64,000 nucleotides of DNA, from positions 62,443 to 126,442 of the forward strand of contig DAONET010000002.1 of the NCBI GenBank assembly GCA_035403225.1, read 5' to 3'. Under the pieces are notes generated by a model. That model searched no databases and was not told the DNA's origin. It saw nothing but the letters and a program-made list of their open reading frames with translations. Below, piece after piece: positions 41,228 through 53,502 of the stretch. Every line of letters starts with the position of its first letter. Position 1 is the stretch's first letter. A program made the position numbers and the translations under genes. This DNA comes from Bacteroidales bacterium (lineage in GTDB: Bacteria > Bacteroidota > Bacteroidia > Bacteroidales > FEN-979).

Positions 41228-42028
41228 ATGCCAAAGCAAATCACCAGTCTCCAGAATCCCGTCATTAAAAATATCATGCTGCTGGAAGAAAAGCCGCGGG
41301 AACGGCGACAGCAGAACCTGGCCGTGGTCGAAGGATTGCGGGAGGTGAAACTGGCGATCGGTTCAGGATTTTCGATCCCGTTGATCCTCTATTGTCCGGA
41401 ATACCTGGGGCAAGCGGAGCTGGATGCCCTGCTGGCGGAAATGACCACCCCTCCCGAACTGGCGGAGATTACGCCCGATATCTTTAACCGGCTGGCATAT
41501 CGCCAAAACGCCGGTGGAATTATAGCAACGGTTGTTCCCAGACGCTTGCGTTTCGAGGATCTGCCGTCTGTCATCACTCCCTTGTTCCTAGTCCTCGAAA
41601 CAGTGGAAAAACCGGGCAACCTCGGAGCCATCCTCCGCACCGCCGACGCAGCCAACCTCGACGGGGTGATCATCTGCGATCCCCAGACCGATATCTACAA
41701 CCCCAACGCCATCCGTTCCTCCTTAGGCTGCATCTTTACCATGCCGGTGGTGACCAGTACTACGGCCGAAACCATTGCCTGGCTGCGTTCCAAAGGTATC
41801 CGTTCGTTTGGTACCGCCCTCACAGCTACCGGCTTTTACCACCTTTCCGATTACCGGCAACCGGCAGCCATTGTCATGGGGTCGGAAGCTTTCGGTCTCA
41901 GCCAAACCTGGCTTGATCAGGCTGACGAACTGGTGAAGATTCCCATGAGAGGAAAAGTCGATTCCATGAATGTCTCTGTATCCGCGGCCATCATGGTGTT
42001 CGAAGCTTTACGTCAACGAGGTTTCTGA
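41228..42028 (+). CDS. TrmH/SpoU-family RNA 2'-O-methyltransferase
   Basis: 266 aa with SpoU motifs LVLETVEKPGNLGAILRTADA and IPMRGKVDSMNVSVSAAI. Confidence 0.9.
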   Translation: MPKQITSLQNPVIKNIMLLEEKPRERRQQNLAVVEGLREVKLAIGSGFSIPLILYCPEYLGQAELDALLAEMTTPPELAEITPDIFNRLAYRQNAGGIIATVVPRRLRFEDLPSVITPLFLVLETVEKPGNLGAILRTADAANLDGVIICDPQTDIYNPNAIRSSLGCIFTMPVVTSTTAETIAWLRSKGIRSFGTALTATGFYHLSDYRQPAAIVMGSEAFGLSQTWLDQADELVKIPMRGKVDSMNVSVSAAIMVFEALRQRGF

Positions 42029-42074: not shown

Positions 42075-42106
42075 TACTTTTGTTTCGTCTTTCTACGAAA
42101 TACTAA
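42075..42106 (+). promoter_or_regulatory. Promoter/operator copy A: TACTTTTG -7 box followed by TTTCG-N8-CGAAA-TACTAA
   Basis: It is nearly identical to the element at 44275-44307 and lies immediately upstream of arsR (ATG 42110). Confidence 0.6.
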
Positions 42107-42109
42107 ATT

Positions 42110-42442
42110 ATGACAACCACCAGGAAATATTTCACGGAAAGCCAGGAAAAAATGGCCCGGTACGCGAAAGCATTATCACATCCGGTCAGAATCTTCATCC
42201 TCGATTTTCTGGCTGAAAATACGCACAAGTGCTGTTACAGCGGCGATATGGCCGAAGAGCTGCCTATCGCCCGCTCAACCTTGTCTGAACATCTGAATGA
42301 ATTGAAAAAAGCAGGGTTGATACAGGGCGAAATCAATCCACCCTACATCAAATACTGTATCAACAACGAGAATTGGGAAGAAGCAAAAACACTGTTTCGA
42401 CCCTTCTTTGAGCGAAAAGTGGTGAAAAGAGTATGCGATTAA
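42110..42442 (+). CDS. arsR: ArsR/SmtB-family metalloregulator
   Basis: 110 aa. It has the HTH region ALSHPVRIFILDFLA...MAEELPIARSTLSEHLNELKKAGLI and a vicinal Cys pair (HKCCYSGD) where the ArsR CVC site normally sits. Confidence 0.9.
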   Translation: MTTTRKYFTESQEKMARYAKALSHPVRIFILDFLAENTHKCCYSGDMAEELPIARSTLSEHLNELKKAGLIQGEINPPYIKYCINNENWEEAKTLFRPFFERKVVKRVCD

Positions 42443-42454
42443 AAAATTATATCC

Positions 42455-42691
42455 ATGGAAATTAAAATCCTGGGGCCCGGGTGCCCAAAATGTAAAACGC
42501 TGGATAAACTAACCCGTGAAGTGGTTGAACATAACGGGATTGATGCGACGATCACGAAAGTGGAAGACATCATGGAAATCATGAAGTATGGCGTCATGTC
42601 AACGCCTGCACTGGTGGTGGACGGCCAGGTCCTGATCAAGGGTCGTGTCCCTTCATCGGATGAGATCAAAAAAATATTAACATCAAAATAA
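42455..42691 (+). CDS. Small cytoplasmic thioredoxin-fold protein (redox-active disulfide protein 2 type)
   Basis: 78 aa, starting MEIKILGPGCPKCK, with a CxxC motif. Confidence 0.85.
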   Translation: MEIKILGPGCPKCKTLDKLTREVVEHNGIDATITKVEDIMEIMKYGVMSTPALVVDGQVLIKGRVPSSDEIKKILTSK

Positions 42692-42700
42692 ACCTGCTGT

Positions 42701-43132
42701 ATGAAAAAACTCATTCCGTTTATGCTCCTTCTGGCCATGTTCACAGGAAGTTATGCCTGCAACGGCCCTGCATCATCCTCTCCGGCCGGCAATGCGGCTG
42801 TTACTACCGGTAAAAAAGTGGAGGTATATTATTTTCATTTTACCCGTCGTTGCATGACTTGCCAGAATGTGGAAAATGTCTCGAAAAAAGCGGTCGAAAC
42901 CTTATATCCCGAACAGGTAAAAAAAGGTGATATCATCTTTAAAAGCGTCAACCTGGAAGAAAAAGAGGGAGAGATCCTCGGAATAAAGTACAAGATCGAA
43001 GGCCAGACCCTGATCGTGATCAGCGGGACGAATAGAGTGGACCTTACGGATAAAGGCTTTTTATATGCCAACAACAACCCCGAAAAACTCACCGCTGAAA
43101 TTAAAAAAGCGGTTGACGGTATGATGAAATGA
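42701..43132 (+). CDS. Exported CxxC lipoprotein (thioredoxin-like; possibly the family annotated ArsF-like)
   Basis: 143 aa with lipobox GSYAC and motif FTRRCMTCQN. The family name is recalled from annotations and was not verified. Confidence 0.6.
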   Translation: MKKLIPFMLLLAMFTGSYACNGPASSSPAGNAAVTTGKKVEVYYFHFTRRCMTCQNVENVSKKAVETLYPEQVKKGDIIFKSVNLEEKEGEILGIKYKIEGQTLIVISGTNRVDLTDKGFLYANNNPEKLTAEIKKAVDGMMK

Positions 43133-43151
43133 TGCGCTGATCAACTGGTAT

Positions 43152-43853
43152 ATGGAAGTACTCGAAAACATTCTCGCCAACTCCCAGTACGCGGCTGTCA
43201 CCGCGTTCATCCTTGGTTTAATGACCGCCATCAGCCCATGCCCGCTGGCGACCAATATCACGGCCATCGGTTTTATCAGCCGTGACATCGAAAACCGCCG
43301 CAGGGTCTTTCTGAAAGGGCTGGTCTATACGCTCGGAAGAGCCATCACCTATACGGGACTCGGTGTCCTGCTCTACCTCGGTGCCAGCAAAATGAAAGTC
43401 ACCAACCTCTTCCAGGGATGGGGCGAAAAACTACTGGGACCGCTGCTGATCCTGATCGGACTCCTCATGCTCGATTTCATCAAAGTCAGGTTCCCGGGGT
43501 TTTCAAACCTGACTGAAAAGATGGGAGACAAAGGCCGTCGATCATACGGGGGCACTCTTTTGCTGGGAATCATCTTCGCGATGGCTTTCTGCCCATACAG
43601 TGGAGTACTGTACTTCGTGATGCTGATCCCCATGACCATCGCAAGCGCCAGCGGGCTCTACCTGCCGGCCATCTTCGCCGTTGCTACCGGCCTGCCGGTC
43701 ATCCTTTTTGCCTGGCTGTTGGCTTACGCTATCGGAAATGTGGGGAAATTCTACGACCGCATTAAAACATTCGAGCTGTGGTTCCGCCGGCTGGTGGCTG
43801 TTTTGTTTATCGCTGTCGGGATTTATTACATTATTATTTTCTTCGTAAAATGA
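43152..43853 (+). CDS. DsbD/CcdA-like integral membrane thiol-disulfide protein (family also annotated as ArsG-like permease)
   Basis: 233 aa with about 6 TM helices. Two intramembrane Cys-Pro motifs are present (AISPCPLATN and AMAFCPYSG). Confidence 0.75.
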   Translation: MEVLENILANSQYAAVTAFILGLMTAISPCPLATNITAIGFISRDIENRRRVFLKGLVYTLGRAITYTGLGVLLYLGASKMKVTNLFQGWGEKLLGPLLILIGLLMLDFIKVRFPGFSNLTEKMGDKGRRSYGGTLLLGIIFAMAFCPYSGVLYFVMLIPMTIASASGLYLPAIFAVATGLPVILFAWLLAYAIGNVGKFYDRIKTFELWFRRLVAVLFIAVGIYYIIIFFVK

Positions 43854-44269
43854 TGAATGCATTATTCGGTAATAAAGGTTTCGAAAGCAATGGCATCCTC
43901 CACCTGGTGCCACGCGATGCCTATGAACTGTGTATGAAAGGAGCAGTGCTCATGGACGTGCGCGAAGAATACATGAACCGATATAAAATGTTTGATGTGC
44001 CCGAGGTTATTTACTGCCCCCTGAGCATCCTCGAAGAAAATTTGGAAAACCTCCCGGCCGATAAACCATTGATTTTTGCCGACGCCGCCGGCTTACACAG
44101 TAAAGAGGCCGTGCTGTTACTCATCGGGAAAGGACTTGGACAACGCATCGCCAACCTGGCCGGCGGACTCGTGGAATGGGAACACGATGGCCTGCCCCTG
44201 ATCATCGACAAAAGCGAAAAACTGACCGGCTCTTGCATGTGCCAGCTCAAACCCCGGGATAAAAAATAA
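43850..44269 (+). CDS. Rhodanese-homology domain protein lacking the catalytic Cys (Asp instead), with a C-terminal CMC
   Basis: About 139 aa from ATG 43850, which overlaps the upstream stop as ATGA. The active-site loop reads IFADAAGLHSKE where rhodaneses carry C-x5-(R/S). The tail is TGSCMCQLKPRDKK. Confidence 0.7.
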   Translation: MMNALFGNKGFESNGILHLVPRDAYELCMKGAVLMDVREEYMNRYKMFDVPEVIYCPLSILEENLENLPADKPLIFADAAGLHSKEAVLLLIGKGLGQRIANLAGGLVEWEHDGLPLIIDKSEKLTGSCMCQLKPRDKK

Positions 44270-44351: not shown

Positions 44352-44726
44352 ATGTCGGAAATAATGAAACCTGGTTTTATCATGTGCGTTTGCACCGGTA
44401 AATGTCCCGGGTTTTCCAAAATGGATATCTGGGATTTCATCAACAGAGTGAGAATCGAATTGCCCGTGGAATATGGGTTTATTCACCCGCAACTATGTGA
44501 AGAAGACGGAGACCGGTTTTTATCGGATTTCCTGAAATCGCACCGGAAAGTGATCATCGGAGGTTGTGCTCCCAATATGCAATATAAACTTTTCAGGGAT
44601 GCTTTCAGGGAAGCCGGTCTTGACATAAACAAGGATCTGATCCCTATCGATGTACGCGACATGACTACCGATCAAGCCGTTGAAAAGGTCAATGCGGCCC
44701 TTGGAAAAATGGAGGAAGCAAAATGA
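44352..44726 (+). CDS. Cys-rich small alpha/beta protein (degenerate DGC-like or MvhD/FlpD-like)
   Basis: 124 aa. Motifs MCVCTGKC and VIIGGCAPN are spaced like PCSG...DGC of the downstream DGC proteins and like the GGCHxGDC region of MvhD. The resemblance was judged by eye only. Confidence 0.45.
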   Translation: MSEIMKPGFIMCVCTGKCPGFSKMDIWDFINRVRIELPVEYGFIHPQLCEEDGDRFLSDFLKSHRKVIIGGCAPNMQYKLFRDAFREAGLDINKDLIPIDVRDMTTDQAVEKVNAALGKMEEAK

Positions 44727-45016
44727 GTGAAACAACTTTCATGGGAGTCGAACGGGAAAGAATCGACTGGAAACCGGTCATCGATTACTCAAAGTGTGAT
44801 TTCTGCATGGAATGCGTAAAATTCTGTCCCCACCGGGTTTTTGAAGTCCGGGAAAACCAAGAGATCAAACTGGTTGTTAAAAACCCCTTCAACTGCGTGG
44901 TGTTCTGCAGGGCCTGCTCGAAAACCTGTGGACCCGACGCCCTGTCGTTCCCCGATAAAAATAAAACATCGCAGATGATCAGAGATATCAGGAAGGAGGC
45001 GGAAAACCATGAGTGA
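44723..45016 (+). CDS. 2x[4Fe-4S]-type ferredoxin
   Basis: 97 aa with motifs CDFCMECVKFCP and CVVFCRACSKTC. GGAGGA lies 6 nt upstream of the ATG, and the gene overlaps its upstream neighbour by 4 bp and its downstream neighbour by 8 bp. Confidence 0.8.
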   Translation: MSETTFMGVERERIDWKPVIDYSKCDFCMECVKFCPHRVFEVRENQEIKLVVKNPFNCVVFCRACSKTCGPDALSFPDKNKTSQMIRDIRKEAENHE

Positions 45017-45866
45017 AAAGTATGCGGTGCTTCCCTGCAACGGACTGGATAAATGCGCAGGGGTCATTTCAAGGGAAATCGCTTTGAGATTATGCGGTGA
45101 TGCCGGCCATGAAATCATTTGTCCGGTGTTTTCCAGGATCGCGGAATTGAAATACCGGAAAATCATCAGCGAACACCCGTTGCTGGTCATCGATGGCTGC
45201 CCTACCCGATGCGCAAGCAAACTTGCGGCAGAAAAGAATTTTAAAATTGCCGGAAAGATAACCGTTACGGAAGAAGCTAAAAAATCCGGGATTGAGCTAA
45301 GTGATACGTTGCAACTCGGGGAAAAGGAACATGCGTTGATCGGGCTCCTGTTGAATGACCTGAAAACACCCGGGAATACATCCAAACAGCCTGATGAAAG
45401 GGAAGGTGAATCGTACCATTTTGATTATGAGACTTTTCAAAAAGGGAAATTCCTTTTCAGAGTCCCCGTGAATAAGGATATCTTTTTTATCGAAAATGAT
45501 TGCTGGGCCTACGTTTCCGGGAACAGGGCCAGAATTGGTGTCACCGATTTCGTCCAGCAAAACCTGTCGGATATCTTGTTTTTCACCCCTCCTGAAATGG
45601 GCTCGGAAATTGATCAGTTCGGTGAAGCAGGAGAAATCGAATCGTCAAAGTCGGTCTTTGAAGTGATCTCTCCGGTTAGCGGAAAAGTGATAGGGGTGAA
45701 CGAAGCCCTGATCCAAAAACCGGAACTGATCAACGAAAACCCTTACGAACTGGGCTGGATAGCCGACCTGGAATTGACCGCGTTCGAAAACGATAAAGAA
45801 TTACTGATCGGTTTTGATCAGTATTTTGAAATAATGAAAAGAAAGGTGATGGATCTCAATGGATAA
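45009..45866 (+). CDS. DGC-domain (putative Zn/metal-binding) protein fused to a GcvH-like lipoyl-attachment domain
   Basis: 285 aa. The N-terminal part has LPCNGLDKCAG...VIDGCPTRCA (DGC motif). The C-terminal part has RIGVTDFVQQ...GEIESSKSVFEVISPVSGKVIGVNEAL...NENPYELGWI, which is H-protein-like with Lys214 at the lipoyl position (codon 45648-45650). Confidence 0.75.
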   Translation: MSEKYAVLPCNGLDKCAGVISREIALRLCGDAGHEIICPVFSRIAELKYRKIISEHPLLVIDGCPTRCASKLAAEKNFKIAGKITVTEEAKKSGIELSDTLQLGEKEHALIGLLLNDLKTPGNTSKQPDEREGESYHFDYETFQKGKFLFRVPVNKDIFFIENDCWAYVSGNRARIGVTDFVQQNLSDILFFTPPEMGSEIDQFGEAGEIESSKSVFEVISPVSGKVIGVNEALIQKPELINENPYELGWIADLELTAFENDKELLIGFDQYFEIMKRKVMDLNG

Positions 45867-46251
45867 AAAAGTAAAAGTGATTCCTTGCAGTGGAATAGGG
45901 AAAGTATTTGGCTTCATGGCCCGGGAAGCTGCATTGAAAACAGTTTATGAATTATGCCCGGAAAAAGCTGAAACGGTTTGTCTCGCCCGGATAGTGACCG
46001 GCGATCAGGAAGTGAAGGAAAAGATCGAAGGCAGTGATTGTATCACGGTGGATGGTTGCCCCAAAATGTGTGCCTCAAAAAATGTCACAGCCGCAGGAGG
46101 CATCGTAATAGAAGAAATCAAAGTATTAGATACCGTGAAAGAGCATAAAGGGGAAAAGTTCGGATCACCCTCGCAACTGGATGCTGATGGCGAAGTCGTA
46201 ACAGGCGAAATCGCATCGAAGATCGCTGATAGAATAAATGAAGTAAAATAA
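45859..46251 (+). CDS. DGC-domain protein
   Basis: 130 aa with motifs IPCSGIGKVFG and ITVDGCPKMCA. Confidence 0.75.
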   Translation: MDKKVKVIPCSGIGKVFGFMAREAALKTVYELCPEKAETVCLARIVTGDQEVKEKIEGSDCITVDGCPKMCASKNVTAAGGIVIEEIKVLDTVKEHKGEKFGSPSQLDADGEVVTGEIASKIADRINEVK

Positions 46252-46257
46252 GGAGGA

Positions 46258-46716
46258 ATGCTGATGTCGGAATTTAAAGTAGGCGTAATTTCTTGCAGCG
46301 GAGAGGAATGTCTCGGGGGAACCATCTCAAGACTGGCGACAAGAAAGGTGTTGGAAGAGCTGAAAATGGTTGAACCGGTTACCCTGTGTCTGCCGCTTTA
46401 CCTGGCCGGTGGGAAAGAAGAACGAAACTTTGCCAGGGTGTTCCCGGTAATATCAGTCGACGGTTGCCATCAATGCTGCGCCAAAAGAAGTACGGAAAAG
46501 TACAGCGGTCAGGTAAGCGGGGCTGTCGATGTGGCAGACATCATCGGGGAAGAGAACGCCCTGAACACGGAAATTGTCAGGAATAAGGATCTTACATCAG
46601 AACACCTCCGGATGATTGACCGGGTTGCAGAAGATATCGTAAAAAAGATCGGGAATATCAGTCCGGATGCTTATTCCGGGAAAACATTCCACGGTTGTGG
46701 ATGCAGCGAAAAGTGA
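46258..46716 (+). CDS. DGC-domain protein
   Basis: 152 aa with motifs ISCSGEECLGG, ISVDGCHQCCA and a C-terminal HGCGCSEK. AAGGAGG at 46250-46256 favours the ATG at 46264 as the true start. Confidence 0.75.
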   Translation: MLMSEFKVGVISCSGEECLGGTISRLATRKVLEELKMVEPVTLCLPLYLAGGKEERNFARVFPVISVDGCHQCCAKRSTEKYSGQVSGAVDVADIIGEENALNTEIVRNKDLTSEHLRMIDRVAEDIVKKIGNISPDAYSGKTFHGCGCSEK

Positions 46717-46751: not shown

Positions 46752-47246
46752 ATGAACGCTTCTGATAAAAGAAAACCAATATCAGCGATCCTTAACATCA
46801 CCTTTATCGGGCTGGGCCTCGTGGCCCTGGTCTTGTTGTTCGTTTTCAAAGGCAGTCTGAATACCGTTGTTACAAAAACCATCAAAGCACAGGCCGGTGA
46901 AGAGCTTCAAAACCATGTTGCCATGTATGTTGATTCTGCGTTCAATTACCGGCAGAACGGGGAAGGCTTCCGGATAACATTCCTTGAATTTGGTGCTAAA
47001 GGTTGCAGTGCTTGCAAAATGATGGAAAAGGAGATGGAGAAAGTGAAAAACAATCATCCGGATGAAGTCAGGGTGACTTTTGTCAATGTTTTGATGCCTG
47101 CTGGTCAGGATCTGATGAAATATTACGGAATTGCCTCCATCCCGACACAGGTACTTTTGGATGATGCTGGTCACGAGGTTTTCAGGCATACTGGATATTT
47201 TTCATCAGATGATCTGGATAAAGAGTTTTTAAAAATCAACCCATAA
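46752..47246 (+). CDS. Membrane-anchored periplasmic thioredoxin
   Basis: 164 aa with an N-terminal TM helix and a Trx fold carrying FGAKGCSACKMM and the cis-Pro region SIPTQV. Confidence 0.85.
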   Translation: MNASDKRKPISAILNITFIGLGLVALVLLFVFKGSLNTVVTKTIKAQAGEELQNHVAMYVDSAFNYRQNGEGFRITFLEFGAKGCSACKMMEKEMEKVKNNHPDEVRVTFVNVLMPAGQDLMKYYGIASIPTQVLLDDAGHEVFRHTGYFSSDDLDKEFLKINP

Positions 47247-47255
47247 AAAATTCGT

Positions 47256-47615
47256 ATGAAAAATTTCCACCTGCTTTGGATTCTTACCGCATTTCTCCTT
47301 TGGTCTTGCGCTGAAAAAGATAATACCCAACCATCCGAAGAAATAAAAATTAACAGCCTGACAGCATCGGAAAACCCCGTCAAAGCCTGGGACACGGCGG
47401 TAATCACGGTAGAAGCTACCGGCGACAACCTCCAATACAGATGGGAAGCAAACCACGGTAATTTCAGGGGAGGCGGTAAACAAATCAGATATGCTGCAGG
47501 TGAATGTTGTGTTGGTCTCAACACGATCACCTGCACGGTTTCTAATAGCTCGGGTAAGGTATCCGATACCATTATGATCCGTGTTACATCCTATTTCGAT
47601 CCAAAAAACAAATAG
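47256..47615 (+). CDS. Small Ig-like lipoprotein with a vicinal Cys pair
   Basis: 119 aa with lipobox LLWSCAEK. It is beta-rich and carries the motif AAGECCVG...ITC. Confidence 0.55.
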   Translation: MKNFHLLWILTAFLLWSCAEKDNTQPSEEIKINSLTASENPVKAWDTAVITVEATGDNLQYRWEANHGNFRGGGKQIRYAAGECCVGLNTITCTVSNSSGKVSDTIMIRVTSYFDPKNK

Positions 47616-47618
47616 TAC

Positions 47619-48608
47619 ATGCTGAAATTAAACGCATTTCTGATCAGTTCATCGTTGCTGTTTTTTATTATCGCGGATAAAACCTCCGCTCAATGTTGCT
47701 CTTCGGGGAATCCTTTTATCAGCGATGCAGAGCATCCTGCCCTGCAATCACAGGTGCTGACCTCTTCTCTGACGTACCGTTATGGCCATTCCTCCCAATA
47801 CTTTTCCGGGGATTCACGATTTTCCGACCTTCCATTCAAGGAGACTTCTTATAGCAATTACGCGGATTTCCAAGTTGGCTATGGAATCACCAATTGGTTG
47901 ACTGTACAAGCCGGCATAGGCTACTTTTTCAATAAAACCCTGACCACATCCGGACTGGAACCTTATAAGGGTTTTGGATTAGGTGATGCGGAACTGTATT
48001 TGAAATTCAATGCTTATACAAATCCTGAAAAAAGATTTTCAATCTCACCTTCACTGGGTGTGAAATTCCCCATCGGTGTTTTTGATCAGGAAGCAGATCA
48101 TGTACAATTACCCATCACGGTCCAGCCATCATCGGGAAGCTATAAATACACCGGGAATGTGTTTATTTTAAAAGGCATCGGCAGAAAAATGGCTTTCGCT
48201 GCATTCCTTGCCTATGAATATTCACAACTCATTGAGTCGGACAATTTCTACTATAAGTACGGTGATCAATGGATTGGCGCCGTGTACTTCAACTTCCAGG
48301 CATGGAAACGGCTTGGGGCAGATATTCAGTTCCGGAATGAATACAGGGCCAAATCCACGCGTGAACATAACGAAATCGTAGATGCTACGGGCTACAACGT
48401 GATCTTCTTCACTCCTCAGTTGACCTGGGCTTTTAAGCACAACTGGTATCTTTCAGCGTACTCCGACATCCCCATATACAAATACTACAATGGTATCCAA
48501 ATGTCATTCGGGTATTCATTTTCAGTTCGTTTGACAAAAAAGATCGATTTTATTGCGCTGAAAGCATACCAAAAATCAAAAAATTATGACGTATTATTAC
48601 GTCAATAA
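47619..48608 (+). CDS. Outer-membrane beta-barrel protein with CC at the predicted mature N-terminus
   Basis: 329 aa. The signal peptide ends ...KTSA, and the predicted mature N-terminus is QCCSSGNPF (Cys codons 47694-47699). Aromatic and Gly-rich strands alternate. Confidence 0.6.
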   Translation: MLKLNAFLISSSLLFFIIADKTSAQCCSSGNPFISDAEHPALQSQVLTSSLTYRYGHSSQYFSGDSRFSDLPFKETSYSNYADFQVGYGITNWLTVQAGIGYFFNKTLTTSGLEPYKGFGLGDAELYLKFNAYTNPEKRFSISPSLGVKFPIGVFDQEADHVQLPITVQPSSGSYKYTGNVFILKGIGRKMAFAAFLAYEYSQLIESDNFYYKYGDQWIGAVYFNFQAWKRLGADIQFRNEYRAKSTREHNEIVDATGYNVIFFTPQLTWAFKHNWYLSAYSDIPIYKYYNGIQMSFGYSFSVRLTKKIDFIALKAYQKSKNYDVLLRQ

Positions 48609-48649
48609 AGATTATAACGTATATTTGCGTCAAATCAAATTCAAGAGAG

Positions 48650-49393
48650 ATGAAAAAATTTTTTGTTTTGATGTTGTTCCTGTCATTCCTGCCAGGCACA
48701 CTTCTCCTTTCAGCACAGACCTCCCAGGAGTTGTTGAAAGCCCAAAAGTCGGGAAAAACAGTTTTCCTGGTTGCCTACACATCGAAAGGCGCTGAACTTG
48801 ATAAGGCTGTTGCCATTGCAAAATCAGCTAATCAAAAAGTCCCTTCCGCAACGACCGTTGTGACCATGAATGCAAGCGATGCCGGCAACAAAGATCTTGT
48901 CACAAAATTCCGAATAAGTGGTGCTCCTTTACCCTTAATCCTGGTTTTGGATAAGAATGGAACAGCCGCAGGCGGGATCATTCTAAAAGAGGCCACTGCA
49001 GAGAAATTGGTAGATATGATACCATCACCAAAAACTTCTGAACTTCTGAAAGGATTGGCAGATGGAAAATCAGTATATATAGTGGTTTACAAGGAAAGCA
49101 TGACTTCGAAAAAAGAAATCATGAATAACTGTGCCACGGCCTGTTCCAAAATGAAGAATACAAGTATTACCATTCAGGTCAACGCCGATGACAAGAAGGA
49201 AACCAAACTATTACGCACCTTAAAGTATGATAATACGGCGACGCAACCTGTTACCTATGTGGTGAATTCATCGGGCCAGTTGACAGATACATATAATGGC
49301 ATGACCAATGTGACCAGCCTGATAGGTTCAGCCCAAAAAGTGATCAAAAGTTCCTGTTGCCCGGGAGGCTCAAAAACCGGTGTTTGTAAATAA
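48650..49393 (+). CDS. Periplasmic tandem thioredoxin-fold-like protein with a Cys-rich C-terminal tail
   Basis: 247 aa with a signal peptide. There are two ~100-aa repeats (KSGKTVFLVAY... and ADGKSVYIVVY...). The tail is SSCCPGGSKTGVCK (about 49349-49390). Confidence 0.55.
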   Translation: MKKFFVLMLFLSFLPGTLLLSAQTSQELLKAQKSGKTVFLVAYTSKGAELDKAVAIAKSANQKVPSATTVVTMNASDAGNKDLVTKFRISGAPLPLILVLDKNGTAAGGIILKEATAEKLVDMIPSPKTSELLKGLADGKSVYIVVYKESMTSKKEIMNNCATACSKMKNTSITIQVNADDKKETKLLRTLKYDNTATQPVTYVVNSSGQLTDTYNGMTNVTSLIGSAQKVIKSSCCPGGSKTGVCK

Positions 49394-49398
49394 TCCCT

Positions 49399-50625
49399 TT
49401 GATCATGACACTTTTTAAACTGGTTTGTATTGAACTCTGGAAACGAAAATCCCAGCTGATTACCGGGCTTCTGGCCATAACCCTTGGTATTGCAGTCATT
49501 GTAGGCATACAGAGCGTTGCTGTTGTTTCTGAACAAAACGTAGCAAAAAACCTCGATAATCTCGGGGCAAATATTCTGATTCTTCCACAGGCTGCAAGCA
49601 TAGACGATTATTACACGGCTGATATTGATGCGCCAACTTTGCCAATGGATTATGTTGAGCGGATACTGTCTTCCACCATTGCCGGTGTCGATAATATGTC
49701 ACCAAAACTAACCCGAAGAATCAAAGTAAAAGGTCAGACCGTCGTACTTACCGGGATACTTCCCAAAAGCGAAATTGCTTCCAAACCCCTTTGGCAATCC
49801 TCCGGTTTACTGGGAAAACAACTTACCACTGAATGCTCTCCCAACCAAACAGTCAATGAATCTCACGGGATGGAGGATGAAAGGTTGCAACGGAAGGCCA
49901 TCGATACCCTTTACAGTGAGAATTGCCTCGCAGGATCACAGGTTGCCAAGAAACTAAACCTTTCCGTTAACAACAAAATTACTATACTCGGAAAGTCTTT
50001 TACGGTGGCGAAGATACTTCCGGAAACAGGGACAGTGGATGATGACAGAATTTTTGCCAACCTGAAAGATGTGCAAAATCTTTTAAAGATCGAAAACCAG
50101 GTATCGGCCATTGAAATCATGGGGTGCTGTCATGCAATTTCAGAAGGATTGCTCAGCCAACTCAGAAACATTCTGCCGGATACAAGAGTGACATCAATAA
50201 ACCAGATTGTATCTACCCAAATCGAAACGAATCAGTTGATGAAAAAAATCACCCTGGTCATGCTGATCATCATCTTCTTCGTTGGAGGAATTTCTATCGG
50301 GAACTTTATCTGGGCGAATGTCAACGAACGGAAAAAGGAAATCGGAATCCTTCGAATGATCGGTGCAAACCATTGGACGATTTATAGTCTTTTCCTTTAT
50401 AAAGCCGTTTTCCTGGGTATTGTCGGGGGAATTCTCGGATATCTTTTGGGAACACTGGCAGGAGTGATTCTGGGGCCTTACTTTGCAGGAATCAATGTGC
50501 AACCCGTGGCAATCTATTTCCTTTACTCTATTTTGCTATCCGTCATCATTGCGATAGCCGGGTCTGTTTTACCTACTTGTCTTGCTGCAAGGATCGACCC
50601 CCATTTAAATTTACAAGAAGATTAA
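49399..50625 (+). CDS. FtsX/MacB-type ABC transporter permease
   Basis: 408 aa with TM1, a large periplasmic domain and three C-terminal TMs (the FtsX fold). The start is TTG 49399 or ATG 49405. Confidence 0.85.
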   Translation: MIMTLFKLVCIELWKRKSQLITGLLAITLGIAVIVGIQSVAVVSEQNVAKNLDNLGANILILPQAASIDDYYTADIDAPTLPMDYVERILSSTIAGVDNMSPKLTRRIKVKGQTVVLTGILPKSEIASKPLWQSSGLLGKQLTTECSPNQTVNESHGMEDERLQRKAIDTLYSENCLAGSQVAKKLNLSVNNKITILGKSFTVAKILPETGTVDDDRIFANLKDVQNLLKIENQVSAIEIMGCCHAISEGLLSQLRNILPDTRVTSINQIVSTQIETNQLMKKITLVMLIIIFFVGGISIGNFIWANVNERKKEIGILRMIGANHWTIYSLFLYKAVFLGIVGGILGYLLGTLAGVILGPYFAGINVQPVAIYFLYSILLSVIIAIAGSVLPTCLAARIDPHLNLQED

Positions 50626-50627
50626 TC

Positions 50628-51305
50628 ATGATGATACAGGTAGAAAAAATATTCAAGCGGTATAATCATAATAGTAAGACTATCAATGCTCTGGACGGGG
50701 TATCGTTTCAGATCAACCAAAGTGATTTTGTCACCGTGACCGGCCCTTCCGGATCTGGTAAAAGCACTTTACTACTGTCTCTTTTTGGGTTGATACGGAT
50801 AAGTTCCGGCTCCATTCAGTTTAATGATCGCCGGATTGATGATCTGCCGGATAGGGAACTTGCCCTGATCAGAAAAAAAGATGTGGGGTATGTCCTCCAG
50901 AGTTTTGCTTTGATCCCGTACCTGACAACCATCCAAAACGTAATGATCCCACTGGCATTGGGAAGGATCCGGAAAAAAGAACAGTTCGACCGTGCATCAG
51001 AGATCCTTGAATATGTGGGCCTCTCCGATCGTATGGACCATCTGCCGGGAGAACTGTCTGCAGGCCAGCAACAAAGGGTTGCCATCGCCAGGGCGATTGT
51101 CCACCATCCAAAGGTCATTCTTGCTGATGAACCAACCGGAAATCTTGATCCTTTCTTGTCGGTAGAGATATTGGAATTTCTGAAAAAAATCAATGAGGAA
51201 AATAAAATCACGGTGATGATGGTGACCCATAGCCCTGTCGCAGCACAATACGGAACCGTGAAACTTCATCTTCAGAATGGTAAAATAATGAATAATAACC
51301 GGTAA
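50628..51305 (+). CDS. ABC transporter ATP-binding protein (MacB/LolD-like)
   Basis: About 225 aa from ATG 50628. It has Walker A GPSGSGKST, the signature LSAGQQQRVAIARA and Walker B ILADEPTGNLD. Confidence 0.9.
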   Translation: MMIQVEKIFKRYNHNSKTINALDGVSFQINQSDFVTVTGPSGSGKSTLLLSLFGLIRISSGSIQFNDRRIDDLPDRELALIRKKDVGYVLQSFALIPYLTTIQNVMIPLALGRIRKKEQFDRASEILEYVGLSDRMDHLPGELSAGQQQRVAIARAIVHHPKVILADEPTGNLDPFLSVEILEFLKKINEENKITVMMVTHSPVAAQYGTVKLHLQNGKIMNNNR

Positions 51306-51307
51306 AA

Positions 51308-51643
51308 ATGGCTTACGCAAAAACAGAATTGTTCGATAAGAAATTATCCTCCGATGCATCCTTATTCAAATCGCTGGCGCATCCCGCACGATTGGCAATA
51401 TTGAAATACCTTGCTGAAACCCGGGTTTGTATTACTGGCGATATTTCAGATAAATTGCCTTTGAGCCGGACAACCATTGTCCAGCACTTGAAAGAGTTGA
51501 AAAAAGTCGGGCTAATTCAGGGACAAGTTGATGGTGCAAAAGTGAATTATTGTCTTGATAATAAAAAAGTGTGTGAGGCTTATTCCGCTATACGGGAATT
51601 CTTCGATACCATCAATGTCCCAAACAACGGGAATTGTAAATAA
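51308..51643 (+). CDS. arsR: ArsR/SmtB-family transcriptional regulator (second copy)
   Basis: 111 aa with the HTH region LAHPARLAILKYLAETRVCITGDISDKLPLSRTTIVQHLKELKKVGLI. It starts 2 bp after the ABC ATPase gene. Confidence 0.9.
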   Translation: MAYAKTELFDKKLSSDASLFKSLAHPARLAILKYLAETRVCITGDISDKLPLSRTTIVQHLKELKKVGLIQGQVDGAKVNYCLDNKKVCEAYSAIREFFDTINVPNNGNCK

Positions 51644-51657
51644 TCTTTCTGACAACC

Positions 51658-52068
51658 ATGAAAATCCTGATCATTTGTACCGGAAATTCATGCCGAAGCC
51701 AGATGGCTGAAGGTTTTTTGAAATCCCTGAATCCTTCCATGCAGGTTTTTTCTGCAGGTACCCTCCCTGAAAAACAGGTCAGTCCTTATGCCGTAGAGGT
51801 CATGAAAGAAATCGGAATAGATATTTCCCGGAACAGGCCCAAAAAGGTGGATCTGTTTCTTGACGATTCTTTTGATTATGTGATCACCGTATGCGATTCG
51901 GCGAAAGAAACCTGCCCGTTGTTCATCGGGAAAGTGAAAAACAGACGTCACATGGGTTTTGAAGATCCGGCGGATGCCCGGGGGACAAAAGAAGAAATTC
52001 TTGCCGTCTATCGCCGTGTCAGAGATCAGATCAGAGAAGAATTCAGGGCTTTTTACGATACCTTGTAA
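51658..52068 (+). CDS. arsC: Arsenate reductase, LMW-PTP (thioredoxin-coupled) type
   Basis: 136 aa with the P-loop ICTGNSCRSQMAEG and the downstream Cys pair VCDSAKETCP. Confidence 0.9.
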   Translation: MKILIICTGNSCRSQMAEGFLKSLNPSMQVFSAGTLPEKQVSPYAVEVMKEIGIDISRNRPKKVDLFLDDSFDYVITVCDSAKETCPLFIGKVKNRRHMGFEDPADARGTKEEILAVYRRVRDQIREEFRAFYDTL

Positions 52069-52084
52069 ATAATCACTTCAGATA

Positions 52085-53206
52085 ATGGTAAAAATCAGTA
52101 AAAAACCGGCTTGTGATTGCGGATGCAACGGTGATGGAGCATCTCCATCCGAAAAAAAACATCCCGGATTACAACCTGATTTCATAATTGGCTCATATCC
52201 ATCTGGCGAAAAATCCGTTCCTCTGGTTTCAACAACATGGAGCCGGACCGATCGGCTGAGCGCGTTGAAAGTCCGGTGGTCCATCGGCAGAATGCATTAT
52301 AAAGTCGATCCGGGAATTTATGCAGTCGGGAAACCCGGCGATCAATCGCTTGTTTTTGTGACCGCCAATTATAAGTTGAGTTTTGATCACCTCAGAAGAG
52401 GGCTCGACGGACTCGACGCCTGGATCCTGGTCCTTGACACGAAAGGGATTAATGTTTGGTGCGCTGCCGGGAAAGGGACATTCGGCACCAAAGAACTGGT
52501 GCGCCGCATCCGGATCCATCACCTGGCCGACCTGGTCACTCACCGGAGAATCATCCTGCCGCAACTGAGCGCTACGGGAGTTGCCGCTCATGAAGTGAAA
52601 AAAATGACGGGTTTTTCGGTTACCTATGGCCCGGTGAGAGCCGTCGACATCAAGGCGTTCCTTGATTCCGGCCTGAAAGCCGGCGAAAGAATGAGAACCG
52701 TTACTTTTTCGTTGGCAGACCGCCTGAAACTGATCCCCGTCGATATCTTTTACGCAAAATATTACCTCCTCCTTATCCCGGCCCTGTTTTTCCTCCTTTC
52801 GGGTCTCAACCCCCATGGGTATTCCATCGAAATGGCCGTTGAAACCGGGAGCAGATCCATACTCAATTTATTTGCCGGTTACCTTTCCGGATGCGCTCTT
52901 ACCCCCATCCTCCTGCCCTGGATCCCGTTCAGAAGGTTTTCGCTGAAAGGATTACTGGTCGGCTGGTTAGTCGCACTCTTCCTGATGGGGGCAGGCACCT
53001 TGGGAAATAACGCGGTCGAGATCGGTTCCTGGTTCCTGATCATGGGAGGACTATCTTCTTTCATGGCCATGAATTTTACTGGTTCGTCTACCTTCACATC
53101 CCTATCCGGAGTTCAAAAAGAAATGAAAACGGCCATTCCTGTTCAGATTACGATGACGGCTCTGGGACTGGCAGGATGGATATTCACCAGATTTATTATC
53201 CTATGA
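52085..53206 (+). CDS. hgcA: Mercury-methylation corrinoid protein HgcA
   Basis: 373 aa. It has the cap-helix signature GINVWCAAGKGTFG (Cys126 codon 52460-52462), a CFeSP-like corrinoid-binding N-domain, a C-terminal multi-helix membrane domain and an N-terminal CDCGC cluster. Confidence 0.9.
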   Translation: MVKISKKPACDCGCNGDGASPSEKKHPGLQPDFIIGSYPSGEKSVPLVSTTWSRTDRLSALKVRWSIGRMHYKVDPGIYAVGKPGDQSLVFVTANYKLSFDHLRRGLDGLDAWILVLDTKGINVWCAAGKGTFGTKELVRRIRIHHLADLVTHRRIILPQLSATGVAAHEVKKMTGFSVTYGPVRAVDIKAFLDSGLKAGERMRTVTFSLADRLKLIPVDIFYAKYYLLLIPALFFLLSGLNPHGYSIEMAVETGSRSILNLFAGYLSGCALTPILLPWIPFRRFSLKGLLVGWLVALFLMGAGTLGNNAVEIGSWFLIMGGLSSFMAMNFTGSSTFTSLSGVQKEMKTAIPVQITMTALGLAGWIFTRFIIL

Positions 53207-53502
53207 AAGAATTCATTTATTTACCCGACGTAGTCACCCTGGAACTTGACAGGGAGAAATGCAACGGTTGCCGGATGTGCCTGACGGTATGTCCCCACGC
53301 TGTATTTGAAATAAAAGATAAGAAGGCGGTGATCCGTCATAAAGATCAATGTATGGAATGCGGGGCATGTGCCAAAAACTGCCCGCAGGAGGCCATTACC
53401 GTCAGATCCGGTGTAGGGTGTGCAGCCGGGATCCTCAATGGAATACTCCGCGGTACTGAACCGACATGCGATTGCAGTAAGGATAGCGGAAGTTGTTGTT
53501 GA
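53203..53502 (+). CDS. hgcB: Mercury-methylation ferredoxin HgcB
   Basis: 99 aa from an ATG overlapping the hgcA stop as ATGA. It has two CxxCxxCxxxCP motifs (CNGCRMCLTVCP and CMECGACAKNCP) and the C-terminal tail CDCSKDSGSCC. Confidence 0.9.
   Translation: MKEFIYLPDVVTLELDREKCNGCRMCLTVCPHAVFEIKDKKAVIRHKDQCMECGACAKNCPQEAITVRSGVGCAAGILNGILRGTEPTCDCSKDSGSCC

Follow-up and report, generated by a model that had tools for sequence, protein, structure and literature searches.

Organization of the locus

The stretch of DNA analyzed here (64,000 nucleotides of a Bacteroidales genome, contig DAONET010000002.1; hereafter the window) carries a single 12.5-kb island in which all genes lie on the plus strand (Table 1). 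The island is bounded on its 5' side by a SpoU methylase gene (41228-42028) and on its 3' side by a convergent TetR/OEP/MFP/RND operon (54853-61177; MFP, membrane-fusion protein). Six of its genes, here called the module, code for an anchored thioredoxin (Trx), a small lipoprotein, an outer-membrane barrel, a tandem Trx-fold protein with a cysteine-containing C-terminal tail (Cys-tail protein), an FtsX/MacB-type permease and an ATPase of the ATP-binding cassette (ABC) type; the last three are referred to as the trio. The module is a conserved, uncharacterized Cys-rich envelope set around a MacB-type ABC transporter. From the sequence comparisons described below, it would be best understood as an accessory envelope layer of an arsenic-resistance island under ArsR control and not as a system dedicated to the HgcAB proteins encoded in the same island, a reading to which we give a probability of roughly 0.55.

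An earlier description of this DNA from its sequence (the original prediction) had noted six closely packed genes followed at once by arsR and leading straight into arsR-arsC-hgcAB. Coordinates, gaps and plus-strand orientation were re-read from the sequence and were all correct: the gaps, including the step to arsR, are 9, 3, 41, 5 (or 11), 2 and 2 bp, and the genes form one tight string with acr3 as the last. The fourth gap is 11 bp instead of 5 bp if the permease starts at 49405, which is probably the case judging from the lengths of its homologues (all 404-407 amino acids (aa), the 406-aa ones pointing to this start). An exact-sequence database look-up of the window permease retrieved no record, probably due to the choice of start codon.

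Table 1. Genes and putative regulatory elements of the island, with positions in the window.
Feature	Position	Strand	Basis or remark
Putative ArsR operator/promoter element TTTCTACGAAATACTAA	42090-42106	+	Just 5' of arsR1, after -7 box
arsR1	42110-42442	+	Upstream ars block
arsE-like small Trx	42455-42691	+	NCBIfam ArsE family, 123.8 bits, above cut-off
arsF-like lipoprotein with CMTC	42701-43132	+	NCBIfam ArsF, 105.8 bits, above cut-off
arsG/CcdA-like membrane protein	43152-43853	+	NCBIfam ArsG, 306.6 bits, above cut-off; Pfam DsbD_2
Rhodanese	about 43853-44269	+	Pfam Rhodanese
Second copy of the 17-mer TTTCTACGAAATACTAA	44291-44307	+	In 82-bp gap before gene string from 44352 to acr3
Cytoplasmic Cys-rich redox cluster	44352-46716	+	HdrA-N-like protein (124 aa), 2x[4Fe-4S] ferredoxin, DGC+GcvH fusion, two DGC-domain proteins
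Signal-anchored periplasmic Trx (GCSAC)	46752-47246	+	Pfam Thioredoxin
Small lipoprotein	47256-47615	+	Lipobox; weak PKD match
Outer-membrane barrel, COG4313/PF13557 type	47619-48608	+	AlphaFold2 model, Foldseek, PF13557 of homologues
Possible internal promoter -7 box TATATTTG	48620-48627	+	Pattern match only; 41-bp gap before Cys-tail gene
Cys-tail tandem Trx-fold protein	48650-49393	+	AlphaFold2 model, Foldseek
FtsX/MacB-type permease	49405-50625 (alternative start 49399)	+	Pfam FtsX, MacB_PCD
ABC ATPase, LolD/MacB/FtsE type	50628-51305	+	Pfam ABC_tran
arsR2	51308-51643	+	2 bp after ATPase gene
arsC, thioredoxin-type	51658-52068	+	Family-model searches
hgcA	52085-53206	+	NCBIfam HgcA, 434.6 bits, above cut-off
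hgcB	53176-53502	+	NCBIfam HgcB, 128.5 bits, above cut-off
acr3, Acr3-type arsenite efflux permease	53524-54582	+	Orthology; end of island

Conserved cysteines in the module proteins

The permease carries the Pfam domains FtsX (PF02687, 68.9 bits) and MacB_PCD (PF12704, 44.8 bits), both above cut-off, and its best sequence matches in the PDB are MacB. A hydropathy scan, which is a heuristic and not a dedicated predictor, gave transmembrane (TM) segments at residues 25-43, 286-304, about 330-357 and 370-388, with a periplasmic domain at approximately residues 44-285, between the first and the second segment. The FtsX/MacB topology with a large periplasmic domain that had been proposed for this protein is borne out by the Pfam domains and the four-TM profile. 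Together with the adjacent cognate ATPase (Pfam ABC_tran, 110 bits), these features place the transporter among the type VII ABC transporters. The ATPase is below every NCBIfam equivalog cut-off, and LolCDE was rejected as an identification since both the ATPase (LolD, TIGR02211; 210 bits vs. a cut-off of 307.8) and the permease (LolC/E, TIGR02212; 52.2 vs. 362) score too low.

The strongest signal of the module, missed in the original prediction, is a triad of periplasmic cysteines in the permease, C146 together with the vicinal pair C243-C244, which is invariant in 49/49 orthologues (Cys conservation was counted in orthologues extracted from the 56 trio loci described below). The pair lies within the almost invariant stretch SAIEIMGCCnAISdGLLgkLRNILPDT of proteins that are otherwise 58-84% identical, and in the alignment with MacB it comes after the last beta-strand of the Porter subdomain, at the N-terminus of its last helix. 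With 32 clusters at E<1e-30 in a set of 1.84 billion representatives, the family of the periplasmic domain is small. In FtsX relatives farther away the site of the GCC motif reads GCC, GCGC, GCxC or ECLC, and possession of a Cys pair in this periplasmic position may define a wider, uncharacterized subfamily of type VII ABC permeases. The distant GCGC/GCxC/ECLC permeases are P0376, P0389, P0392, P0395, P0399, P0408 and P0417-P0429.

Could these be generic envelope genes, a Lol/MacB-like ABC transporter for lipoproteins or peptides and a channel for hydrophobic compounds, lying next to ars genes by chance? The database names are indeed generic, the ATPase is LolD-like at 210 bits, and COG4313 channels are linked to the uptake of hydrophobic compounds. 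However, Lol and MacB lack the invariant Cys triads, the Lol equivalog score of the permease is far under its cut-off (52 vs. 362), and the linkage to ars genes described below holds down to approximately 31% identity and across phyla, with gene orders that are permuted and yet remain inside ars clusters. Chance adjacency is thus extremely improbable.

The Cys-tail protein (247 aa with a signal peptide; all 159 homologues are named 'hypothetical') ends in SSCCPGGSKTGVCK, a CC-x8-C pattern, the cysteines of which are kept in 51, 40 and 45 of the 52 orthologues. Its AlphaFold2 (AF2) model, with a mean predicted local distance difference test (pLDDT) of 86, has two Trx-fold domains, nearest to PDI bb', QSOX and archaeal PDO-like folds according to Foldseek, and a disordered tail (residues 235-247). 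An additional pair of cysteines is located mid-helix (C161 in 52/52 and C165 in 43/52 orthologues). Catalytic thioredoxin or PDI activity was rejected, as neither of the Trx folds has CxxC at the N-terminus of helix 1. A metagenomic locus, L143 (9001-14980), codes for a second, lipoprotein-anchored Cys-tail paralogue with the tail GGGCCPTGSGESCGP; a gene for a DUF1573 Ig-like protein with SCGC stands there between the Cys-tail gene and FtsX, and a DUF6088/AbiEii toxin-antitoxin pair is inserted in the operon.

The lipoprotein (119 aa) has the lipobox LWSC, the cysteine of which is found in 21/21 orthologues, as are C85 and C93, while the third cysteine is at position 84 in 11 and at position 82 in 10 of them. 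The GECC motif pointed out earlier is therefore present here but only half conserved, its alternative form being CxSC. The fold is probably Ig/PKD-like; the PKD match is weak (18.3 bits vs. the Pfam cut-off of 23.5), and a comparison of the sequence with the PDB gave no usable match. Thus three proteins of the module, the permease, the Cys-tail protein and the lipoprotein, each have three conserved cysteines including a vicinal or near pair. The anchored Trx (164 aa; Pfam Thioredoxin, 35.9 bits) has a single N-terminal TM segment at residues 13-31 in the hydropathy scan, and its CxxC, within GCSAC, is kept in 10/10 orthologues.

In the barrel protein (329 aa) a signal peptide precedes the mature N-terminus QCCSSGNPF. 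This N-terminus, QCCSSGNPFISDAE, is the best-conserved stretch of the family, and its CC is kept in 19/21 orthologues. The AF2 model is a 12-stranded beta-barrel (pLDDT 81), in agreement with the outer-membrane barrel that had been claimed, and Foldseek matched it to the COG4313 channel Pput2725 (4rl8; E 3e-13, target TM-score 0.80-0.82) and also to FapF. PF13557 gave no match to the window barrel at E<=0.01 and is carried by many homologues at 43-73% identity. The likeness to COG4313/PF13557 channels (Pput2725, SphA) and FapF consists of the 12-stranded barrel and the short N-terminal segment before strand 1. In contrast to COG4313 channels, this segment, the most conserved part of the protein, starts with a vicinal Cys pair, and the gene sits in ars operons, not in those of aromatic or lipid catabolism. 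In Pput2725 approximately 14 N-terminal residues fold into the lumen and constrict it (PMC4493636). By analogy, the N-terminal segment of the window barrel would be inserted in the lumen, the model being of low confidence at residues 19-38.

All Cys motifs that the original prediction had listed for exported proteins (GCSAC, GECC, QCCSSG and the tail SSCCPGGSKTGVCK) can be read from the sequence. It had named a lack of conservation in orthologues as a ground for refutation; the motifs are kept, with GECC only half conserved. A role other than ligand transport can be imagined for such a set: in envelope thiol-redox protection or repair the ABC transporter would remodel or release its Trx-fold partner in an FtsEX-like manner, or export a reductant, and keep periplasmic thiol proteins working under arsenic or sulfide stress. 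The abundance of Trx folds and redox genes in the island (the anchored CxxC thioredoxin, CcdA-like ArsG, rhodanese and Hdr/DGC-type genes) fits such a role, and FtsEX, BceAB and other type VII ABC systems are generally known to act on partner proteins without transport. We nevertheless consider it unlikely, as the Trx-fold partner is without catalytic CxxC, the conserved cysteines form triads on segments that are flexible or exposed, as is typical of metal(loid) sites, and an outer-membrane channel with a Cys-bearing plug suggests the passage of a ligand.

Genomic neighborhood

A survey seeded with the Cys-tail protein and covering one genome per GTDB species resulted in 57 loci, 56 of them with a usable match to the trio. 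The carriers, which number at least 56 at the species level and come from anoxic lakes, peat, permafrost and groundwater, are mostly Bacteroidales and Prolixibacteraceae, and Eisenbacteria, Bipolaricaulota, Gemmatimonadota and one deltaproteobacterium are also among them, so that Bacteroidota and four other phyla are represented. In every locus with room for the three genes (48/48) they adjoin one another in the order Cys-tail, FtsX, ABC. An ArsR gene abuts the trio in 42/56 loci, on its upstream side in 17 and on its downstream side in 25. When the 35 loci with at least 4 kb of downstream sequence were inspected, acr3 was found within 6 kb after the trio in 30, arsC in 23 and hgcA in 7; either arsC or acr3 is present in 27/30 loci having both flanks. 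The trio is accordingly linked to arsR, arsC and an As(III) efflux permease, as a component of an ars operon would be. The Acr3 orthologues are 88-93% identical, and those in loci L138, L142 and L143 carry Pfam SBF. Two loci from metagenomes have permuted orders, arsR-arsE-arsF-arsG-ArsP-rhodanese-Acr3-FtsX-ABC-arsR-CysTail (L142) and arsR-CysTail-(lipoprotein paralogue of CysTail)-DUF1573-[AbiEii]-FtsX-ABC-arsC-Acr3 (L143).

The Trx-lipoprotein-barrel genes are less constant, being present in only 14-17 of the 40 trio loci whose upstream flank is 6 kb or longer, and in some loci, such as L005 and L014, the DGC cluster lies between them and the trio. Distant homologues of the barrel (approximately 45% identity, CC kept) are encoded in the context arsR-arsE-arsF-arsG-ArsP-x-Trx-lipoprotein-barrel(-arsR-arsC-acr3), without the ABC trio or hgcAB. 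The six genes are two separable sub-modules and not one fixed unit, and the ars operon is the common denominator of the contexts of the trio, of Trx-lipoprotein-barrel and of hgcAB.

Relationship to hgcAB

The original prediction had tied the module to hgcAB and proposed a trans-envelope route for a thiophilic metal(loid). The tie does not hold: hgcA follows the trio in 7/35 loci, and in an HgcA-seeded metagenome survey (27 close hgcA loci, each having 6 kb or more of sequence upstream) the trio was found in 7/27 loci, and arsC together with acr3 in 15/27. Thus in neither survey do the two co-occur in most of the loci. Locus L067 has Trx-lipoprotein-barrel, ars genes and hgcAB with the trio absent. 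In the neighbor-joining tree of FtsX, loci that have hgcAB are interspersed with sister loci that lack it, acr3 being nearly universal, and in the sister loci without hgcAB arsC abuts acr3. Based on this patchy distribution and on the abutting genes of the sisters, hgcAB looks like a facultative insert. An Hg-dedicated module was rejected from the two reciprocal neighborhood surveys and the FtsX tree, and such a dedicated role is unlikely.

More specifically, the module could be a trans-envelope route for Hg(II) uptake or methylmercury (MeHg) export serving HgcAB. Module and hgcAB are indeed in one gene string with genes 2-21 bp apart, hgcAB occurs within 10 kb of the trio in about one quarter of the loci, including a distant Eisenbacteria locus (L037), and vicinal thiols are classical Hg(II) ligands, CC and CxCxC being carried also by HgcB and HgcA of the window. 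Against these points, hgcA is absent within 6 kb downstream in 28/35 trio loci, and anywhere in the locus in 27/35, the trio is missing from 20/27 close hgcA loci, hgcAB is scattered among hgcAB-negative sisters, and trio and hgcAB are each independently tied to arsR-arsC-acr3. In addition, the three-Cys sites fit As(III) better than linear two-coordinate Hg(II), and MacB-type transporters are not known as importers. We regard this route as very improbable. What remains of the original proposal is the conserved envelope system, the conserved cysteines of which argue for a thiophilic ligand; the specific link to HgcAB is lost, and the uptake direction it had included is unlikely for a MacB-type transporter, judging from general knowledge of the family.

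The embedding of hgcAB between arsC and acr3 has been published (PMC7438021; bioRxiv 10.1101/2022.10.17.512643), as have the arsC-hgcAB-acr3 arrangement and the control of hgcAB by ArsR (PMC7438021; bioRxiv 10.1101/2022.10.17.512643; PMC11984097); the ABC module is absent from these three reports. Within this clade of Bacteroidota the much larger ArsR-controlled island only sporadically has hgcAB inserted between its arsC and acr3 genes, and therefore the genes next to hgcAB should not be read as Hg-specific.

The HgcA of the window has a Cys-packed N-terminal extension, KKPACDCGCNGDG (52085-52150), from which CDCGCNGD was taken as one of the six window-derived patterns seeding the hgcA metagenome scan. 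In other HgcA proteins a selenocysteine motif, PCUGP, has been described (Haft & Gwadz, bioRxiv 10.1101/2022.07.06.499078). The extension matches the PCUGP region, with Cys residues and no in-frame UGA.

Regulation

The 17-mer TTTCTACGAAATACTAA occurs as an exact sequence twice in the window vs. 0.16 expected by chance, contains the palindrome TTTCG-N7-CGAAA, and has a 13-mer core that is also found ahead of arsR1 orthologues in 10 other loci. It is a likely ArsR operator, defining a regulon with two promoters. A Bacteroidetes-type -7 box (TAnnTTTG) is located at 42075. As all gaps between 44352 and 54582 are at most 41 bp, co-transcription of the module with arsR2-arsC-hgcAB-acr3 is plausible, and no convincing terminator was found between the module and the arsR-arsC-hgcAB-acr3 string. 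General scans were uninformative: sigma-70 models, outside the scope of which Bacteroidota promoters fall, gave 24 promoter-like sites vs. 19.9 expected, and the search for intrinsic terminators gave 23 sites vs. 14.3 expected, the examined plus-strand ones being inside coding sequence. Riboswitches or other structured RNAs were sought in the island and in atypical loci, and none was found there.

The ArsR proteins adjoining the trio, including orthologues of ArsR2, keep three cysteines in two different arrangements. Convergently evolved three-thiolate (S3) sites occur in As(III)-sensing ArsR proteins, and the cysteines of the trio-adjacent ArsRs resemble these.

Proposed role and mechanism

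Since the trio lies within ars clusters and the proteins have three-Cys sites, the best reading of the module is a periplasmic and outer-membrane extension of arsenic detoxification. S3 geometry is used by ArsR, ArsD and ArsA, and transporters of the MacB/LolCDE type work on substrates on the periplasmic side by mechanotransmission. The identity of the substrate, the direction of transport and the order of hand-off given below are those that we infer. Trivalent arsenicals (As(III), perhaps methyl- or aromatic As(III), or Sb(III)) would reach the periplasm via Acr3 or ArsP or from sulfidic surroundings, and the Cys-tail chaperone and the permease triad would capture the ligand on S3 thiolate sites. 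ATP hydrolysis could then cause mechanotransmission in the periplasmic domain, by which the ligand would be released or passed on and direction be given. Where present, the Cys3 lipoprotein and the CC-plugged COG4313 channel may provide passage over the outer membrane, while the anchored Trx and a relay of ArsE, ArsG (CcdA-like) and ArsF would keep the thiols reduced.

In its most elaborate form the two sub-modules would make up an ATP-driven thiol-to-thiol relay resembling the Lol pathway, in which a soft metal(loid) moves from the FtsX triad to the Cys3 tail, further to the Cys3 outer-membrane lipoprotein and finally to the CC-gated COG4313 channel. Such a relay is doubtful and, as we see it, improbable. 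If true, it would be the first dedicated route of arsenic extrusion from the periplasm to the outside, and in lineages with an hgcAB insertion Hg(II) or MeHg could travel along it as well.

Several points weigh against a role in arsenic detoxification. All 56 trio loci are from metagenome-assembled genomes (MAGs) and none from a cultured organism, and three loci (L007, L038 and L042) are without arsC or acr3 nearby. In one of the three (L042, 5122-14323, in a MAG labelled Chitinophaga) the trio is beside molybdenum cofactor (Moco) genes and a SulP/MOT1-like permease. ArsR/SmtB regulators can sense other metals or persulfides, and the Cys sites would bind Hg(II), Cd(II), Cu(I) or Zn(II) too. 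The exit of As(OH)3 from the periplasm is generally regarded as passive and may call for no ATP-driven step. Finally, permease and barrel have no adaptor (MFP) between them, and the two sub-modules are often apart or single.

Some of these points would fit the handling of another thiophilic element (thiomolybdate or tungstate, Zn, Cu, Cd or Sb) in sulfidic water under an ArsR/SmtB-type sensor. In L042 the trio lies between the genes of Moco biosynthesis (MoeA, TauE, MoeB-rhodanese, MoaE and MoaC-MogA) and the SulP/MOT1-like permease, with no ars genes within 10 kb; in L038 an upstream ArsR is the sole flanking ars-related gene identified, no arsC or acr3 having been found; and the ArsR family as a whole senses many metals. 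The alternative context is, however, seen in single loci only, whereas arsC or acr3, which are specific for arsenic and antimony, accompany the trio in 27/30 loci. Another element as the main substrate is therefore highly unlikely.

Comparison with known systems

No description of the module was found in the literature searched, and this absence is limited to that literature. With the type VII ABC systems (MacB, LolCDE, FtsEX and HrtBA) the transporter shares the FtsX C-terminal domain, the MacB periplasmic core, four TM segments with a large periplasmic domain between the first two, a LolD/MacB-like ATPase and, probably, action by mechanotransmission on a substrate on the periplasmic side. 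It differs from these relatives in several respects: the nucleotide-binding domain is separate, no membrane-fusion protein or TolC-type duct is adjacent, the scores are far under the Lol, MacB and FtsX equivalog cut-offs, and the module has its own Cys triad (SAIEIMGCC and C146) as well as an obligatory Trx-fold partner with a Cys3 tail. A MacAB-TolC pump was rejected, there being no HlyD or OEP domain in the six genes or beside the trio in L142 and L143; the only MFP/OEP genes found (57963-60494) belong to the convergent TetR-RND operon. Mercury transport of the mer type (MerT/MerP/MerC) was likewise discarded, since no Mer family was among the Pfam and NCBIfam matches of the six proteins at E<=0.01.

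Soft-metal trafficking has also been proposed for the SAO system, in which an ABC transporter is found amid exported proteins overloaded with Cys or selenocysteine and a thioredoxin-like protein, and its authors saw a conceptual link to the CC and CU motifs of HgcA and HgcB (bioRxiv 10.1101/2022.07.06.499078). The module shares with it the combination of an ABC transporter, Cys-rich exported proteins and a Trx-like protein. However, SAO is a MetI-type importer with substrate-binding proteins, not homologous to the module, and was rejected as an identification (SaoA 136.6 vs. a cut-off of 360, SaoT 16 vs. 65; SaoP is MetI-like, not FtsX).

The As(III) site of ArsD is formed by Cys12-Cys13-Cys18, and CusF hands its ligand to CusCBA in the periplasm. 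Conceptually, ArsD/ArsA, the ArsR sites and CusF-CusCBA share with the module a three-Cys site with a vicinal pair and the delivery from a soluble chaperone to an energized pump, as far as general knowledge of these systems goes. There is no sequence or fold kinship to any of them and, in contrast to the cytoplasmic ArsD/ArsA, the module is periplasmic and outer-membrane with a type VII ABC motor. The organoarsenical genes arsEFG and arsP reside in the same islands and are alike in coding for a Trx-like protein, a CcdA-like membrane protein and a lipoprotein; their products are, however, distinct from those of the six genes, which have no NCBIfam ars model.

To our knowledge, known arsenic resistance ends at the inner membrane (Acr3, ArsB, ArsP and ArsAB). 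The periplasmic clearance or tolerance of trivalent arsenicals, and their crossing of the outer membrane in diderm anaerobes, are essentially unaddressed, and the module is a compact and widely conserved candidate for these functions, offering clear targets for tests in its GCC motif, Cys3 tail and QCC plug. It would also extend the repertoire of type VII ABC transporters by a substrate site built of thiols. Its interest lies mainly in arsenic biology, where it is moderate to good, and is low as far as a role specific to Hg is concerned.

Neighboring genes

The arsE/arsF/arsG-like genes (42455-43853) resemble a DsbD/CcdA-type relay of reductant over the membrane, consisting of a cytoplasmic CPKC mini-thioredoxin, a membrane protein with two CcdA-type cysteines, both of which are present in ArsG, and the CMTC lipoprotein. 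This look is at odds with the NCBIfam names 'nitroreductase subunit' and 'efflux permease'. The redox cluster downstream of the rhodanese gene has overlapping start and stop codons, and such a DGC cluster adjoins the module inside ars islands in 9/40 loci. On the opposite side of the island, acr3 is adjoined by the convergent minus-strand operon with a TetR regulator and OEP/MFP/AcrB-type RND genes, which is probably a coincidence or the island boundary; a similar TetR/MFP/RND/OEP set is found beside the Trx-lipoprotein-barrel operon in locus L140.

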